A stretch of 60,797 nucleotides of DNA, counting the filler, from Actinomycetota bacterium (GTDB taxonomy: Bacteria; Actinomycetota; Actinomycetes; JAKEEW01): assembly GCA_046725875.1 (NCBI GenBank). It is 4 parts of 4 records of this genome, joined end to end, with 100 filler letters (N's around TTAATTAATTAA, not from the genome) between each part and the next. Parts side by side here need not be neighbours in the genome. Positions count along the whole stretch, not along the records: positions 43,789 to 54,972 come from JBKOZJ010000063.1; 3 more parts are not named here. The stretch is one strand, 5' to 3'. Position 1 is the stretch's first letter. Each line of letters opens with the position of its first letter. Position numbers and translations under genes: made by a program. The notes below the pieces were generated by a model. It saw only the letters and a program-made list of their open reading frames with translations, searched no databases and was not told the origin of the DNA. Below are positions 28,200-55,072 of the stretch, one piece after another.

Positions 28200-28299
28200 N
28201 NNNNNNNNNNNNNNNNNNNNNNNNNNNNNNNNNNNNNNNNNNNTTAATTAATTAANNNNNNNNNNNNNNNNNNNNNNNNNNNNNNNNNNNNNNNNNNNN
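28200..28299. other. artificial contig-join spacer
   Basis: 44 N + TTAATTAATTAA (stops in all six frames) + 44 N. Confidence 0.98.
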
Positions 28300-29243: not shown

Positions 29244-32200
29244 ATGGGCGTACGCACCTGGCTTGGGAACTGGCCGGTCTTTCGGCAGGTCAGGGAGGGT
29301 GATCCCCTTGGGAGGGGGCGGGCCGCGCAATCTGCTCGGTCGGCGACCCTGCTGCCGCGCACCGCGTCCGCTGATCGGGTGGCGCGCTCCGTCTGCCCGT
29401 ACTGCGCCGTCGGCTGCGGCCAGAAGGTGTACGTGAAGAGTGGCGAGGTCGTCCAGATCGAGGGAGACCCGGACAGCCCGATCTCGCGCGGCCGCCTCTG
29501 CCCGAAAGGGTCGGCCAGCAAGCAGCTTGTCACCGGCCCGCAGCGCGAGCAGAAAGTGCTCTATCGGGAACCATACGCGACCGAGTGGCGCGAGCTTGAT
29601 CTCGAGACCGCGATGGACATGGTGACCGACCGTGTGCTGGACGCCCGCCGCAAGGGCTGGCAGGACGTCGACGAAAAAGGCCAGATGCTGCGCCGCACGC
29701 TTGGCATCGCGAGCCTAGGGGGCGCCACCCTCGACAACGAGGAGAATTACCTCATCAAGAAGTTGTTCACGGCGCTCGGCGCGATCCAGATCGAGAACCA
29801 GGCGCGCATATGACACTCCTCCACCGTTCCCGGTCTGGGAACTTCGTTTGGCCGCGGCGGCGCCACCAACTTCCAGCAGGACCTCGCGAACGCTGACTGC
29901 ATCGTCATCCAAGGCTCGAACATGGCCGAAGCCCATCCGGTGGGCTTCCAGTGGGTGATCGAGGCCAAGGCGCGCGGTGCGAAGGTCATCCACGTGGATC
30001 CGCGGTTCACCCGGACGAGCGCGCACGCGGACTTGTATGTGCCAATCCGGGCAGGGACCGACATTGCGTTCCTCGGCGGAGTCGTCAACTACATCCTCAG
30101 CAACGAGAAGGACTTCAGGGAGTACGTCCTCGCGTATACCAACGCGTCGTTCATCGTCGGTGAGGACTTCAAAGACACCGAAGACCTCGACGGGCTGTTC
30201 TCCGGCTACGACTCCGACACGGCTAGCTACGATACGTCGAGCTGGCAGTACGAGGGCATGCGCGAGCGGCCAGCGGCGGGGCACCGGACCGGGCACGGGG
30301 CGAAGGAGCACTCCCCCGGAGACTTGTTCGGCTCGGGCGGGCCTGCCCTGCACGGCGAGTCGCCTCATCCGCCATCCGATCCGACGCTGCAGAACCCGCG
30401 GTGCGTCTGGCAGATTCTCAAGCGCCATTACTCCCGCTACACACCGGAGATGGTCGAAGCCGTCTGCGGCATACCGACGGAACTCTTCCTAGAGGTATGC
30501 GAGACCTGGACTGCCAACTCCGGCCGTGAGCGGACAACCGAGATGGTCTACTCGGTGGGCTGGACGCAGCACACCGTCGGCGTGCAGTACATCCGAACGG
30601 CGGCGGTCATCCAGCTGCTGCTCGGCAATGTCGGTCGCCCTGGCGGCGGCATCATGGCCATGCGCGGGCACGCAAGCATCCAAGGATCGACCGACATTCC
30701 GACCCTGTTCAACCTGCTCCCGGGCTATCTGCCGATGCCGTCCGCCTCGGCCCATCCCGATCTCAGGACGTACGTCGAGTCGCTTACCGGCGAGAACCAG
30801 AAGGGCTTCTGGCACAACGCTGCGACCTACATCGTGTCGCTGCTCAAGGAGTATTGGGGCGAGGCGGCGACGGCGGACAACGATTTCTGCTTCGACTACC
30901 TGCCGCGGCTCACCGGTGATCATGGCACCTACCGCACCGCGATGGACATGGTCGACGGGAAGGTGTACGGATACTTCCTACTTGGGCAGAACCCTGCGGT
31001 CGGCTCGGCACACGGCAGGTTGCAACGGCTCGGCATGGCCAACCTCGATTGGCTGGTGGTCCGGGACTTGGCGATGATCGAAAGCGCGACGTTCTGGAAG
31101 AATGCGCCCGAGATCGAGACTGGGGAGATCGTACCCGAGCAGTGCCGGACCGAGGTCTTCTTCTTTCCCGCGGCGTCTCATGTCGAGAAGGACGGCACGT
31201 TCACCCAGACGCAGCGAATGCTGCAATGGCGCGAAAAGGCGGTCGAGCCGACGGGCGACCAGCGCTCGGAGCTGTGGTTCTTCTACGACCTCGGCCGGCG
31301 GCTAAAGGAGCGGCTTGCCGCGTCGACGGACGAGCGGGACCGACCCGTGCAGGATCTGGCCTGGGACTACGAGGTGACGGACGGTGAGCCCGCAGCGGAG
31401 GATGTGCTACGGCGGATCAATGGCTACGACCGCACGACCGGACGGCCGCTGGACTCGTACCTCCAGCTCAAGGCGGACGGATCCACCACCTGCGGCTGCT
31501 GGACCTACTGCGGCGTGTTCGCCGACGGCGTCAACCAGGCGGCCCGCCGCAAACCCTGGTATGAGCAGGGCCCGACCGCGCTCGAATGGGGCTGGGCATG
31601 GCCGCTCAACCGGCGGATCCTCTACAACCGTGCGTCCGCTGATCCTGCCGGGCAGCCCTGGAGCGATCGCAAGGCGTACATCTGGTGGGATGCGCAGAAG
31701 GGCGAGTGGACCGGCCACGACGTACCGGACTACGAGAAGACCAAGCCGCCAGACTACGAGCCGCCGTCCGATGCGGTTGGTCCGGCGGCGCTGCGCGGCG
31801 ACGATCCGTTCATCATGCAGGCCGACGGGAAGGGCTGGCTGTATGTGCCGAGTGGGCTGCTTGATGGTCCGCTCCCTACGCACTACGAGCCCCACGAATC
31901 ACCGTTCCGCAATGTGCTCTACGGCCAGCAGGGCAACCCGACGAGGAAGGTATACGGCCGCGCCGACAACCCGTCCAACCCGGCACCCCCAGAGGAGCAC
32001 GCCGACGTCTTTCCCTACGTCCTTACCACGGCGCGGCTCACCGAGCACCACACCGCCGGCGGGATGAGCCGCTTCCTGCCTTATCTCTCAGAGCTGCAAC
32101 CCGAGCTCTTCGTCGAGGTTTCCCCCGAGCTGGCCGCCGAACGCGAGCTCGAGCATCTCGGTTGGGCGCACGTCATCACCAGCAGGACCGCTATCGAGGC

Positions 32201-34699: not shown

Positions 34700-35719
34700 T
34701 TAGCGGACCACCAGCGTGACGCGGTCGGTACGACGCGGGATGATCTCACCGATGATTGGATGGCCCGGGAGCTCTCCGGCGACCAACAGGCCGCCCGAGG
34801 TCTGGGCATCGGCGAGAAGCAGCAGCTCGTCCTCATTCCAGCGTCCACGGTCGAGGTACGGCCTGACCCAAGCGAGGTTGCGTTTCGTCCCGCCGCTCAC
34901 GTAGCCTGCGGCAACTGCCTCGCGGGCTCCGTCGAGGTACGGGACCCGAGCGGCGTCAACGACGGCCGTGACGCCGCTCGCCCGCGCCAGTTTGTGGAGG
35001 TGTCCGAGCAATCCGAATCCGGTGATGTCGGTTGCGCAGCGAGCGCCGGAATCAACTGCGGCACGAGCCGCGGCACGGTTGAGGGCAGCCATGACCTCGA
35101 CCGCGTGGCCGAAGACCTCGCCGGTCGCCTTATGGCGGTTGTTCAGCACGCCGATACCCAGCGGCTTGGTCAGGGTCAGCGGCTGCCCGGGCCGTGCTGC
35201 GTCGTTGCGAAGCAGCCGATTGGGATCGGCGATGCCGGTGACCGCCATTCCGTACTTGGGTTCTGGGTCGTCGATGCTGTGCCCGCCCGCGACATGGCAG
35301 CCGCCGTCCCGGGCAACATCGAGCCCACCGCGCAGCACTTCGGCGGCAAGCTCGTAGGGCAGGACATCTCGCGGCCAGCCGAGAAGGTTCACCGCGATCA
35401 GTGGCGTCCCGCCCATCGCGTACACATCTGACAGGGCGTTGGCCGCGGCGATCCGCCCCCAGTCGTACGGGTCGTCGACGACTGGGGTGAAGAAGTCCGC
35501 GGTGGCAAGGACCGCGAAGCCGCCATCAACCCGGACGACCGCCGCATCGTCGCCGTCCTCGAGCCCGACGACGAGCTCACCAACCGCTCCTAGCGGACTG
35601 GCCCCCGTCAACCCGGCAATGATGGACTCGAGCTCACCGGGTGGGATCTTGCATGCACAGCCGCCACCATGCGCGTAATGCGTGAGCCGACGGGCGAGGC
35701 GGGCTGACTGTACGGCCAC
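34700..35719 (-). CDS. selD: selenide, water dikinase (Cys form)
   Basis: HGGGCACKIP, DDAAV, TADFFTPVVDDPYDWGRIAAANALSDVYAMGG, DITGFGLLGH, DAQTSGGLL. Confidence 0.97.
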   Translation of the reverse strand: MAVQSARLARRLTHYAHGGGCACKIPPGELESIIAGLTGASPLGAVGELVVGLEDGDDAAVVRVDGGFAVLATADFFTPVVDDPYDWGRIAAANALSDVYAMGGTPLIAVNLLGWPRDVLPYELAAEVLRGGLDVARDGGCHVAGGHSIDDPEPKYGMAVTGIADPNRLLRNDAARPGQPLTLTKPLGIGVLNNRHKATGEVFGHAVEVMAALNRAAARAAVDSGARCATDITGFGLLGHLHKLARASGVTAVVDAARVPYLDGAREAVAAGYVSGGTKRNLAWVRPYLDRGRWNEDELLLLADAQTSGGLLVAGELPGHPIIGEIIPRRTDRVTLVVR

Positions 35720-43688: not shown

Positions 43689-43788
43689 NNNNNNNNNNNN
43701 NNNNNNNNNNNNNNNNNNNNNNNNNNNNNNNNTTAATTAATTAANNNNNNNNNNNNNNNNNNNNNNNNNNNNNNNNNNNNNNNNNNNN
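43689..43788. other. artificial contig-join spacer
   Basis: 44 N + TTAATTAATTAA + 44 N. Confidence 0.98.
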
Positions 43789-51799: not shown

Positions 51800-52363
51800 C
51801 TATCGGTCGGACTGCTTTCGGACGCGGAAGCGGAGGATGGTCGCGTCGCCCGACTGCGTGCTGCCGAGCGGTTCCAGGTCTGTCCTCGCAAGGCCCGGGG
51901 ACGAGAAGCGGATGCCGTCGCCGAGCAGCACCGGCAGCACATACACCAGGATCTCGTCGACGAGCCCCCGCTGCAGGCACTGGCTGGCCACGTCGGCGCC
52001 GAGGATTTCGAGGTTCTTGCCACCCGCAGCGTCCAGTGCGGTGGCGACCGCTTCCCCGATGTCGCCGGAGAGGATCGTGACCTCCGGGTCCGGCGGCTCC
52101 AGCGGTCTATGGGTGAGGAGGAACACCGGTCCGGAGAAGGGGTAGTCGGTGCTACCCGGCTCCTCGGCCTCCATCCGGTCGCCTACCTCCCAGGTCCGCC
52201 GGCCGACAAGCATGGCGCCGGTGGCCGCGGCGACCGCCGCGAAATCGTCCGGTGCCACGAAGTCGGCGAGAGCGCGACCACCGCCCCAGTCCATCGAGTG
52301 GCCGGGACCCGCGATGAAGCCGTCCAGCGACATACACCTGTTCACGACTACCTTGCCGCTCAT
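51800..52363 (-). CDS. RibD-C/dihydrofolate reductase family protein
   Basis: CMSLDGFIAGP, MLVGRRTW, VFLLTHR, ILGADVA, LPVLLGDGIR; RBS AAGGAGG. Confidence 0.9.
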   Translation of the reverse strand: MSGKVVVNRCMSLDGFIAGPGHSMDWGGGRALADFVAPDDFAAVAAATGAMLVGRRTWEVGDRMEAEEPGSTDYPFSGPVFLLTHRPLEPPDPEVTILSGDIGEAVATALDAAGGKNLEILGADVASQCLQRGLVDEILVYVLPVLLGDGIRFSSPGLARTDLEPLGSTQSGDATILRFRVRKQSDR

Positions 52364-52591
52364 TTCACAGCCGCCCTCCTTAGGTCGTCACCGCACGTCT
52401 GGCCCTTCATGAGCTGACACCTGTCGAATCTCAGCGCGCGCCGCCACGGGTTCAGATCTTTGCGCCGATCGGGGCGGGCGTACGGGAAGTGCCGCTTCAG
52501 TATGTCTCACGTGACGCCCGGCGGCCGGAGCAGTAGCGACAGCTACAACATCCGCATCTCGGCATTATGTAGGTGATCCGTGTCAAGTGGA

Positions 52592-53839
52592 TCATGATGC
52601 TTGGCTGTCGTTGAGATTGTTGAGCAGTCGTTGGAACAGGTCGGCGCGCTGCTGCTGACGATGGTTGGCGGCGTGATCGTGCTGGGCCTGCAGGGTGGGG
52701 CGGAACTCGATGCTGGTCTGGAAGAAGGTGCAGTTCTCGCAGATGGACTCGAACGCGCAGTCCAGCTCGGCTGGCCTTGTGCAGTAGCCGTTGCCGAGCA
52801 GCCGGTGGTGCTCCCGGCGCAGCCTGGCCATCTTCGGTCCGATGGCATCTGCCGGTAGTTGTTGGGGTTGGCCGTAGAGGGCTTCGACCTTGTCGGTGAC
52901 GGCGAAGTACTCCTCGGCGACCGTGTTGTTGGCAATCTTGGCGTAGCGCAAGGTCATGTCCATGCTGCGGTGGCCGAGCATCGCCGCGATCGCCTCCAGG
53001 CTCATGCCGCGGTTGATGGCTTGGGTGGCCAGTGTGTGCCTGAGCTGATGCGGATGAATGTGTGGCAGCCCGGCGGCGGCGCCGGCCTTGTTGATGAACC
53101 GGGTAACCGTGTGCCGGTCCAGCGCGTGTCCGTTCTCCCGCGGCAGCAACAGCGGATGATCGGGCGGCACGTGCTTGCTGCGGTACTCGTCGATGAGCGC
53201 GACGAGGTTGGGGTGCAGGGGCAGGTAGCGGTCGTCGCGCAGCTTGCCGACCGGCACGTGCAGCCACGGCGCGGCGCCGATTTGCACCACCGCGTCAGCG
53301 GGCAGGCTGGTGTACTCGCCGACCCGCAAACCCGTGCGCAGCAACACTTCCACGGTCACCCGGATCAGCATCCGGGGCTGCGCTTGGGCGGCGCGTAGCA
53401 ACCTGGCGGCGGCCGCGTCGTCGAGGGCCTTGGGCAGCGGATGGTCTTGACGCGGTAGGTCACCGTTGAACATCGGTACCCGGACCGGCGCCTCGTCCCA
53501 CGCCCACTCGTCGATGCGGACGAAGAACATCCGCAGCGTGCCGAGCCGGTGCGCGATCGTGGCATCCGTCACGTGCGGCTTGTTCTGCCCGGGCCGCGCC
53601 GCCAGCCACCGCTTGTAGCCCTCGACGTGGCGGCGCGCCACCTCGGCGGTCGACATCACCTCCGGCACATGCTCGACCACGAACGCGGCGAACGACCGCA
53701 ACGCGAGGTCGGCGCCGGTGACGCTTCCCGGGCGCAGCACGCACGCGATCTGCTCCAGGTAGCGGCGCATCGTGGCCACCATCCGTGGCTTGGCAGCCAG
53801 TAACTCCTCCCAGCTCGGCAACAGCAGCGGTCCGCTCAC
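52592..53839 (-). CDS. tyrosine recombinase 2 with C-terminal Cys cluster (Tn554 TnpB-like)
   Basis: TGLRVGE, HQLRHT, LGHRSMDMTLRY; tail NGYCTRP...CAFESICENCTFF. Confidence 0.93.
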   Translation of the reverse strand: MSGPLLLPSWEELLAAKPRMVATMRRYLEQIACVLRPGSVTGADLALRSFAAFVVEHVPEVMSTAEVARRHVEGYKRWLAARPGQNKPHVTDATIAHRLGTLRMFFVRIDEWAWDEAPVRVPMFNGDLPRQDHPLPKALDDAAAARLLRAAQAQPRMLIRVTVEVLLRTGLRVGEYTSLPADAVVQIGAAPWLHVPVGKLRDDRYLPLHPNLVALIDEYRSKHVPPDHPLLLPRENGHALDRHTVTRFINKAGAAAGLPHIHPHQLRHTLATQAINRGMSLEAIAAMLGHRSMDMTLRYAKIANNTVAEEYFAVTDKVEALYGQPQQLPADAIGPKMARLRREHHRLLGNGYCTRPAELDCAFESICENCTFFQTSIEFRPTLQAQHDHAANHRQQQRADLFQRLLNNLNDSQAS

Positions 53840-54894
53840 CGCGCACCTGCTGCCGGTTTGTCGACGAACACCTGCGCGTCGAGTACCTCGGCCGCCTTGC
53901 GGTACTGCGAGGCGAGCCAGTCGTCGGCCAGGTGCAGGTAGATGCGGGTCGACTCGATCGACGCGTGCCCGGCCTGAGCCTGCACCGCCTCCAACGCCAT
54001 CCCAGCCTCTCGCAGCCGGGTCAGGCAGGTGTGCCGCAACTCATGACAGGTCGCGTGCTGCAGGCCCGCGCGACGGCGGGCACGATCGAGGATCTCGTCC
54101 AACCCGTAGGCCGACAACGCCTGGCCACGTCGTGGCCCCTTCAACGCCACGAACACGGACTCGGTCGACGAGTCGGCCGGACGCTCACCCTCGAGGTAGG
54201 CGGCGACGTGGGCGAAGAACCGGCGCGAGACCGGCACCAGCCGCTGGTGTCCGCCCTTGCCGTCGGCGACCAACACCCGTCGCTCCGCGACCCGCAAGTC
54301 GTCCAGGCGCAGCCCGAGCACCTCGCACCGACGCAGCCCGCCGAGCACCATCGCCGCCACCATCGCCCGATCCCGATGCGTGCGCAGCGCCGCGGTCAGC
54401 GCGTCCACCTCGGCCGGCGTCAGGATCCGCGGCAACCTGCGCACCCGGCGTACCAGCGGCACACCCTGATGAGGCCGCCGCCGTTCCCGACGCGTGGGCA
54501 ACCCACGCGGAACCGGGTTCGCCGACACGTCACCGCGGGCGTGCAGGAACCCGTACAGGCCCGACACGATCGACAACCTGCGCCGCACCGTGCCCACCGA
54601 CACACCAGCCTCATCGTCAACGACCACGGGCTTGAGCACGCCGTCGATCGAGGGATGTCCGCTGCGTTGTGCGGTCACGAACGCCAGCACGTCGCCCGGC
54701 TGCACGTCCTGCGGCGCCTTGCCGACCACGGTGAAGAACACCTTCAGGTCGTAAGCGGCCGCCAGCACCGTGTTCGGCCGGCACCGGCCGGCCAGAAACC
54801 GCAAATAGTCGTCCAGCACCGGCACGCCCAGCCGTGCCGGCGGCGCCCCCGGCCGGTCCCACGGACCGATCAGGCACACGTCGAGTAGGCGCAT
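53836..54894 (-). CDS. tyrosine recombinase 1
   Basis: N-terminal PNTVLAAAYDLKVFF, GLRRCEV, GKGG, HELRHT, AGHASIESTRIY; GTGA overlap with gene 2. Confidence 0.93.
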   Translation of the reverse strand: MRLLDVCLIGPWDRPGAPPARLGVPVLDDYLRFLAGRCRPNTVLAAAYDLKVFFTVVGKAPQDVQPGDVLAFVTAQRSGHPSIDGVLKPVVVDDEAGVSVGTVRRRLSIVSGLYGFLHARGDVSANPVPRGLPTRRERRRPHQGVPLVRRVRRLPRILTPAEVDALTAALRTHRDRAMVAAMVLGGLRRCEVLGLRLDDLRVAERRVLVADGKGGHQRLVPVSRRFFAHVAAYLEGERPADSSTESVFVALKGPRRGQALSAYGLDEILDRARRRAGLQHATCHELRHTCLTRLREAGMALEAVQAQAGHASIESTRIYLHLADDWLASQYRKAAEVLDAQVFVDKPAAGAR

Positions 54895-54972
54895 CGCGGG
54901 TGACTCCCCCTTCTCGGGACCGCCGGAAACTCTCCGGCGAAATGTCCCAGAAGATCACCCACATAACATGCA

Positions 54973-55072
54973 NNNNNNNNNNNNNNNNNNNNNNNNNNNN
55001 NNNNNNNNNNNNNNNNTTAATTAATTAANNNNNNNNNNNNNNNNNNNNNNNNNNNNNNNNNNNNNNNNNNNN
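54973..55072. other. artificial contig-join spacer
   Basis: 44 N + TTAATTAATTAA + 44 N. Confidence 0.98.

Follow-up and report, generated by a model that had tools for sequence, protein, structure and literature searches.

We analyzed a stretch of 60,797 nucleotides (nt) from the genome of an Actinomycetota bacterium (assembly GCA_046725875.1), the whole of which is called the window below. Positions 52565 to 54966 probably hold an autonomous, insertion sequence (IS)-like transposon that belongs to the Tn554 lineage and uses tyrosine-recombinase chemistry to move. As judged from its sequence, it is a complete, bounded mobile element made of two recombinases and short inverted repeats, with its active sites intact, and it is read as target-selective. 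The group was already known from actinobacteria, and the element is a pared-down variant of it, not a new type of system. Within the literature searched, its new aspects are the short architecture of its TnpB, the definition of its 14-bp ends and their junction motifs, the mirrored target consensus and an optional helix-turn-helix (HTH) gene.

The unit is 2402 bp long and ends in 14-bp inverted repeats. The gene-2-side repeat is TTATGTAGGTGATC (52565-52578), and the tnpA-side repeat (54953-54966), identified by repeat search and end alignment, is GATCACCCACATAA on the plus strand and TTATGTGGGTGATC on the minus strand. They were the only two matches to the repeat in the window, and shuffling the sequence 100 times produced no match at all. 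Both genes lie on the minus strand. Gene 1 (53836-54894), which encodes a TnpA-like tyrosine recombinase of 352 amino acids (aa), overlaps by 4 nt, GTGA, with gene 2 (52592-53839), which encodes a TnpB-like tyrosine recombinase of 415 aa; both assignments rest on Pfam, BLASTP and the catalytic residues. The gene 2 stop is 13 nt from the left repeat, and the gene 1 start is 72 nt from the outer end of the right repeat. The leader between that repeat and gene 1 (54895-54952, minus strand) contains a GGGGGAG ribosome-binding stretch and a GACATTTCG motif that is conserved in the alignment of element ends. Inspection of the open reading frames (ORFs) of the 2402-bp unit found no third gene that fits between the repeats. 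A preliminary description of this DNA had proposed the same two-recombinase unit, with the left repeat 13 nt from the gene 2 stop and nothing else inside, and coordinates and Pfam matches agree with it; its 14-bp repeats are also present, although they match at 13 of 14 bases and are thus not perfect.

Between the gene-2-side repeat and the gene 2 stop lies a CTTGAC box (52582-52587, minus strand), 80% conserved among 14 aligned element ends, that may be a second binding site. On the minus strand this box, kept inside the gene-2-side repeat in nearly all copies, resembles a -35 box. No -10 box to match it was found, either outward or across the putative circle junction. A promoter scan detected no sigma-70-type promoter, and a junction promoter was not discernible by eye.

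Both proteins match the Pfam Phage_integrase family (6.1e-34 for gene 1, 1.5e-27 for gene 2). The catalytic residues of gene 1, R188/K213/H284/R287/H310/Y319, were invariant in 20 homologues, and those of gene 2, R172/K199/H264/R267/H290/Y299, were conserved in the homologue alignment, which bears out the earlier statement that both active sites are intact. In an alignment of 20 diverse relatives of gene 2, R172, R267, H290 and Y299 were invariant, and C353, C361, C367 and C370 were retained in at least 90% of the sequences. In gene 2, the core-binding and catalytic domains are followed by a C-terminal tail with four Cys residues, which is read as a putative zinc-binding module.

BLASTP comparisons placed both proteins with Tn554 transposition proteins, for which the copy in the public plasmid record OL539428.1 served as reference. 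Gene 1 is 26% identical to TnpA over 334 of its 352 aa (E 4e-27). Gene 2 is 25% identical to residues 239-609 of TnpB (E 3e-31), in an alignment that spans the C-terminal motif NGYC..P....C.....C..C..F and supports the TnpB-like Cys tail previously proposed for it. Identities were higher with the pair of plasmid pREL1, at 63% between gene 1 and its 341-aa protein and 51% between gene 2 and residues 203-609 of its 611-aa protein. Gene 2 does not have the N-terminal ~200-240 residues of the long proteins; because it begins within the gene 1 stop, the ~240 N-terminal residues of TnpB are absent.

In an all-against-all comparison, gene 1 scored 394 bits against the short pREL1 protein, 115 against a Shinella pair, 97 against Tn554 TnpA and 80 against RitC of the Cupriavidus necator pHG1 recombinase-in-trio (RIT) element, the one RIT locus compared. 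The corresponding bit scores of gene 2 were 392 for the long pREL1 protein, 113 for TnpB, 107 for the long Shinella protein and 58 for RitC. The element had been thought to fit neither the RIT nor the Tn554 class, but gene 1 is closest to TnpA-type and gene 2 to TnpB-type proteins, and RitA, RitB and RitC of pHG1 rank below them for both genes. The best NCBIfam matches were XerC/XerD models, at 124.9 and 115 bits where the cut-off is 335.15, and annotation pipelines call these genes XerC/XerD or "integrase". The AlphaFold model of gene 2 has a mean pLDDT of 76 and a Xer-like body that matches solved structures; its C-terminal tail was modeled at low confidence (pLDDT about 40-80) and found no structural match. 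A predicted complex of the two proteins scored 0.24 against a mark of 0.32, which speaks neither for nor against their association.

Two protein searches showed how widespread such proteins are, with at least 6648 and at least 7991 of 8000 scored candidates at E<=0.001, and a representative search gave 413 clusters at E<=1e-30. The best 120 gene 2 homologues listed were mostly 414-415 aa long. Many of them lay on contigs of 2.4-2.9 kb, as expected because the repeat breaks assemblies. The named sources belong to Actinomycetota and comprise Nocardioides, Micromonospora and Ornithinimicrobium together with metagenome-assembled genomes (MAGs) of Pseudonocardiaceae, Geodermatophilaceae, Acidothermaceae and Acidimicrobiales; one further MAG is labelled Planctomycetota. 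The copy in the latter (locus L006) is close, with 83% protein identity, and sits on a 5.9-kb contig; it may reflect transfer beyond Actinomycetota or a binning error.

We gathered 13 genome loci, 34 metagenome loci and one plasmid copy. They include 15 full copies of 2394-2713 bp, the window copy counted and two loci, L012 and L048, representing the same element. All 15, from genomes, a plasmid and metagenomes, terminate at the same repeats. So does the long-form element of pREL1, which is 2950 bp long and bounded by ATATGTGGGTGATC and GATCACCCACATAA. These common boundaries support the earlier proposal of a complete two-recombinase mobile element whose copies end at the repeats. Nor is a third gene a constant feature of homologous pairs, since 10 of the 15 full copies contain two genes only. 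The other five (L010, L011, L041, L046 and L051, about 2.70 kb) have a third ORF, of ~100 aa and with a 4-nt overlap at the gene 2 stop, as at 2507-2809 of L041. Its product has a C-terminal HTH-like stretch, and all its Pfam matches were sub-threshold; it did not match DUF6262, the family of Tn554 TnpC, in a Pfam search where TnpC itself scored 8e-15. This ORF occupies the position of tnpC in Tn554 and may encode a TnpC analogue or a regulator. Over both recombinase genes, the DNA of L012, which has two genes, is 88% identical to that of the three-gene copies L011 and L046, and the third gene was therefore gained or lost between close lineages. In a tree of TnpB-like proteins, short (about 410-440 aa) and long (570-900 aa) forms were interleaved, as if the N-terminal domain had been lost or gained repeatedly, but a part of the short entries may be clipped gene calls on metagenome fragments.

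The sequences adjoining the repeats are highly ordered. In gene orientation, all 20 tnpA-side (5') ends carry TGC[A/T]TG (TGCTTG in 17, TGCATG in 3) and read T-GC[T/A]TG and then [A/T]TATG...GTGATCTTC. All 34 gene-2-side (3') ends read CTTGAC...GATCACCCACATAA or a close variant, and TGCCG stands next to the 3' repeat in 30 of the 33 ends with a flank. The two motifs do not change places: TGCCGA was found at none of the 20 tnpA-side junctions and TGC[A/T]TG at none of the 33 far-side junctions. They have only the bases TGC in common, and no target duplication beyond TGC is evident. In the window, the tnpA-side hexamer, recognized by comparing the 5' ends, is CATGCA (54967-54972; TGCATG in gene orientation), and we propose that it is the overlap region borne by the element. 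The pentamer adjoining the gene-2-side repeat, CGGCA (52560-52564; TGCCG in gene orientation), is read as target-derived, because the empty site of a relative described below has TGCGG and because near-identical copies diverge 5-6 nt past the repeat.

Outside the junction motifs, both flanks follow one mirrored consensus over 14 nt, AAC-R-Y-M-CGC-W-CA. The full order is thus AAC-R-Y-M-CGC-W-CA, TGC[A/T]TG, element, TGCCGA and the mirror arm. Flank position -12 is C in 13 of 15 5' flanks and in all 26 3' flanks, and position -11 is G in 10 of 15 and 21 of 26. The gene-2-side arm in the window, CAACATCCGCATCT (52546-52559), fits the mirrored consensus drawn from 26 unique 3' flanks and also occurs in the relative's unoccupied site. 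Mirrored flanks agreed at 6.0 of 14 positions within copies, 5.6 between copies and 3.9 in random pairs, and the target is therefore a dyad-symmetric consensus site and not a set of private palindromes. Target-like sites numbered 5 in the 3.76-Mb genome against 0-3 per Mb in random sequence; as they are not enriched, the target is not a repeat family in the source genome.

The surroundings of the copies point to movement. Among flanks of at least 20 nt, 15 unique 5' and 26 unique 3' flanks were found. Three near-identical pairs of copies lie in unrelated flanks, L009/L046 (97.5%), L051/L052 (98.2%) and L010/L041 (96.4%), which answers the earlier call for copies in different surroundings. In all three, similarity extends only 5-6 nt outside the 3' repeat; the sole pair to span the 5' repeat is L010/L041, where it is lost within 12 nt before that repeat. 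The distribution of the gene 2 protein is sparse, with none of 40 relatives positive at E<=1e-60 and 2 of 400 sampled genomes of the phylum at E<=1e-90, both of them long forms; the element is therefore patchy. The unit occupies many different sites in Actinomycetota genomes, a plasmid and soil metagenomes, and in one soil run two contigs enter a close variant of the element from another flank at the same point.

A probable empty site, also looked for, was found in a genome of the same family and another genus. Over the left flank this genome is 90% identical to the window as far as the base adjoining the repeat, and it then reads ...ATCTCCGCA-CGCAGATCCGGACG, without the element, where the window reads ...ATCTCGGCA-[element]-CATGCA-CGACCGGACG. 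For the plasmid copy, on pCHL, related Pimelobacter plasmids lose the match 132 nt before the element, and no clean empty site was found among them. Loci L012 and L048 present a different picture. They are 99.9% identical, have 698 nt of 5' flank in common and, 5 nt beyond the 3' repeat, pass into unrelated DNA (L012 5283-5288, L048 3111-3116). This looks like a rearrangement, a deletion or an inversion, with one breakpoint at the element end.

Several observations weigh against an active, target-selective transposon. A single copy was assembled in the source genome, and the expectation that the element is multicopy was not borne out there. The relative's site belongs to another genus, differs at its centre by indels of 3-4 nt and matches on its right side over only about 14 nt, so that the exact crossover point is not fixed. 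No circle junction, excision product or recent transposition was seen in public runs, where only short contigs were available. Copy-specific palindromy of the flanks, within versus between copies, was not significant (permutation p 0.22). Since both junction motifs are nearly constant, it is also possible that both pre-existed in the target. Finally, a gene is broken in 2 of the 15 full copies, gene 2 in L010 and gene 1 in L051, indicating that some copies are decaying.

Alternatively, the element could be what is left, in defective form, of a larger Tn554-type transposon after loss of tnpC, its cargo and the 5' part of tnpB, and it would then move only with help in trans or be immobile. Tn554 is stated to need TnpC in the portions of Ido et al. 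2023 (PMC10214605) and Van Houdt et al. 2012 (Mob DNA 3:6, PMC3414803) available to us, relatives with a 611-aa TnpB exist, and the small third gene of five full copies and the broken genes of two would also be in keeping with such a remnant. We nevertheless consider this unlikely, as the 414-415-aa form is the rule among the best 120 homologues listed, the catalytic residues of gene 2 are intact, and short-form elements occupy many sites, near-identical pairs included. Moreover, short and long forms interleave in the tree, and the pREL1-type long form is likewise without TnpC.

Derivation from a RIT element by loss of one recombinase is suggested by the terminal repeat, which is similar to the inner portion of the 34-nt repeat that bounds the pHG1 RIT, and by the 80-bit match of gene 1 to RitC. 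It appears very improbable, because the scores with Tn554 (97 and 113 bits) and pREL1 (394 and 392 bits) exceed the RIT scores and because the alignment of gene 2 with RitC, its best RIT match, goes no further than residue 333 of 415 and does not reach the Cys tail (353-370) that aligns with Tn554 TnpB. Gene order and size are also those of tnpA-tnpB, in a RIT comparison limited to one locus. The XerC/XerD matches, the Xer-like fold and the single genomic copy would fit a fixed, non-mobile chromosomal module acting in Xer-like resolution or as an invertible switch. That the pair is such a module is hardly credible: its NCBIfam scores (125 and 115 against 335) are far under the curated cut-offs, it is absent from 40 of 40 relatives searched and present on a plasmid, it lies in many different flanks with an unoccupied site in a relative, and conserved synteny of the pair was not seen across related genomes.

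For the Tn554-lineage transposon that we favor, the junctions suggest a possible route of movement. Both proteins would act together, as both are needed in Tn554 (PMC3414803). The element would be excised as a circle whose junction, repeat - TGC[A/T]TG - repeat, has a standard core-site layout, and this junction would recombine with the dyad-symmetric target at its central hexamer TGCCGA. Identity at the first cleavage site would be limited to TGC, a situation with a parallel in IntDOT. The outcome would be one-sided, the tnpA-side junction keeping the element hexamer and the other junction that of the target. Such an asymmetry would fit exchange of a single strand pair followed by replication, or a strictly strand-biased resolution. 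As a guess, the arms of the element and those of the target might each be recognized by a different one of the two recombinases. TnpC and the ~200 N-terminal TnpB residues would be dispensable in the short-TnpB family. That the TnpA/TnpB pair alone suffices, with identity restricted to TGC and a one-sided completion that keeps the element's own hexamer on the tnpA side, is a tentative proposal that may well prove wrong. If it is true, nature would offer no simpler system than this two-protein tyrosine-recombinase insertion sequence for working out Tn554-type movement.

The source MAG measures 3.76 Mb in 197 contigs and is 89% complete. The window is not a single molecule. It consists of four contig pieces (C60, part of C62, C63 and C64), and its joins at 28200-28299, 43689-43788 and 54973-55072 are N runs flanking a TTAATTAATTAA linker, so that pieces across these gaps are not linked as neighbours. 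The element sits at the end of C63 (43789-54972), which terminates at 54972, 6 nt outside the tnpA-side repeat. The preliminary description had this position right and took it for a contig break, but the last 141 nt of C63 are the first 141 nt of contig C72, which then runs into the true flank. Because an exact 141-nt overlap is typical of this assembly (90 of 100 ordered contig-end overlaps), the C63 end is an assembler graph break and not a DNA end. The common stretch stops exactly at the hexamer CATGCA after the repeat, and with C72 both flanks of the element are therefore known.

The gene-2-side flank is the region upstream of a RibD_C-family gene (51800-52363), and another RibD_C gene lies on the C72 side. 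The gene-1-side flank is a ~310-nt sequence (C72, 160-474; locus L080) that recurs elsewhere in the genome and in relatives, with copies of 72-87% identity on contigs C1 and C11 and in two related genomes. Farther along C72 (537-1065) is a gene of the Pfam family Aminoglyc_resit (aminoglycoside-2''-adenylyltransferase) that is probably a pseudogene, because it is divided between two overlapping reading frames. Ankyrin, SnoaL-like and RibD_C genes follow it.

Tn554-type transposons spread resistance to macrolides, spectinomycin, phenicols and oxazolidinones in staphylococci and enterococci. The main value of the element is as a minimal model for their unresolved transposition mechanism. Having only two genes, ends of 14 bp and a target consensus that can be read off, it is a far simpler object for biochemistry, and as a reduced relative it lets the role of TnpC and of the TnpB N-terminal domain be asked. 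The 413 clusters show that soil actinobacteria commonly carry compact elements with tyrosine recombinases as their sole drivers, and labels such as XerC/XerD or "integrase" hide a mobile element that breaks assemblies at its ends.

We found no description of the short form, its ends or its target in the literature, in a search whose scope did not extend to the Ricker 2013 RIT paper or the supplement of PMC3414803; the sources bearing on the short form were PMC3414803 and a passing mention in PMC1713258, both available in part. The portions of Ido et al. (PMC10214605) at hand sort tyrosine-recombinase transposons into ICE/IME, SE, GInt, RIT and Tn554 groups and describe the transposition route of Tn554 as unresolved. 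Several known systems differ plainly from the element. XerC/XerD dimer-resolution proteins are set apart by the NCBIfam equivalog cut-off of 335.15, which neither protein reaches. BIM elements combine one recombinase with a conserved non-recombinase protein (PMC3414803), whereas both genes here encode recombinases, and SE/GInt elements have four conserved core genes, including Tfp/GinC and Srap/GinD (PMC10214605), instead of two. The closest described behaviour to the shared TGC is the limited partner identity of CTnDOT IntDOT, which, in the part of PMC2817482 available, needs identity only beside the first cleavage site and tolerates heterology in the rest of the overlap. IntDOT is nevertheless unrelated, has an arm-binding domain and acts as the single integrase of a large conjugative element, and the parallel would be mechanistic only.

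Like RIT elements, the element is compact, and its inverted repeats enclose nothing but tyrosine recombinase genes that overlap. In the one RIT compared, a similar repeat motif, TATGTnGGTRATC, occurs: the inner terminal repeat of the pHG1 RIT, TATGTCTGGTAATC, is alike to the element repeat, TATGTGGGTGATC. To this extent the RIT-like ends noted earlier hold up, and the resemblance is a hint that the RIT and Tn554-like lineages recognize their ends in related ways. The pHG1 RIT (L091) itself carries the 34-nt inverted repeat CACTATGTGCCCTTCCCGACTATGTCTGGTAAT at 31944-31977 and 35331-35364, and 34-bp terminal repeats are given for RITs in PMC10214605. RIT elements differ in having three recombinases (ritA-ritB-ritC) and repeats of about 34 nt, against two recombinases and 14 nt here, similarity to RitA/B/C is lower, and the third gene of our element's relatives encodes a 100-aa HTH-like protein. 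A first RIT candidate, on an Aromatoleum plasmid (H83), was rejected as a single recombinase beside an IS91 gene, and the match in Shinella is another Tn554-like pair.

With Tn554 the element has in common the tnpA-tnpB order and TnpA/TnpB homology including the C-terminal Cys motif; target selectivity, no evident target duplication and non-identical junction hexamers would be further parallels. It differs by having neither a TnpC/DUF6262 gene nor cargo, and by inverted repeats that are clear and terminal. Tn554 TnpB is about 630 aa long with an N-terminal extension, of which ~240 residues are absent here. In addition, the hexamers differ consistently between the two sides. The available text of PMC10214605 has a 6-bp footprint relayed by SE and Tn554; such a relay predicts the same spectrum on both sides and therefore does not fit these junctions.

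The closest relatives are the actinobacterial Tn554-related pairs, a class that Van Houdt et al. (PMC3414803) named and that has no TnpC. In the portions of that paper available, the class is defined by gene pairs and not by ends or targets, one recombinase is abnormally long (611-828 aa), and Table 2 lists pREL1 of Rhodococcus erythropolis PR4 with a pair lacking TnpC. The element resembles these pairs in its two co-oriented, overlapping recombinase genes with the short one first, in the absence of tnpC and in its actinobacterial hosts, and it matches the pREL1 pair in protein sequence (63%/51% identity) and in having identical terminal repeats. It differs by a gene 2 product of 415 aa instead of 611-828 aa; because the first ~200 residues of the long recombinase of pREL1 are missing, the element measures 2.4 kb instead of about 2.95 kb. 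It is thus not the undescribed system it had been taken for, and in essence matches a family named in 2012, from which its short TnpB sets it apart.

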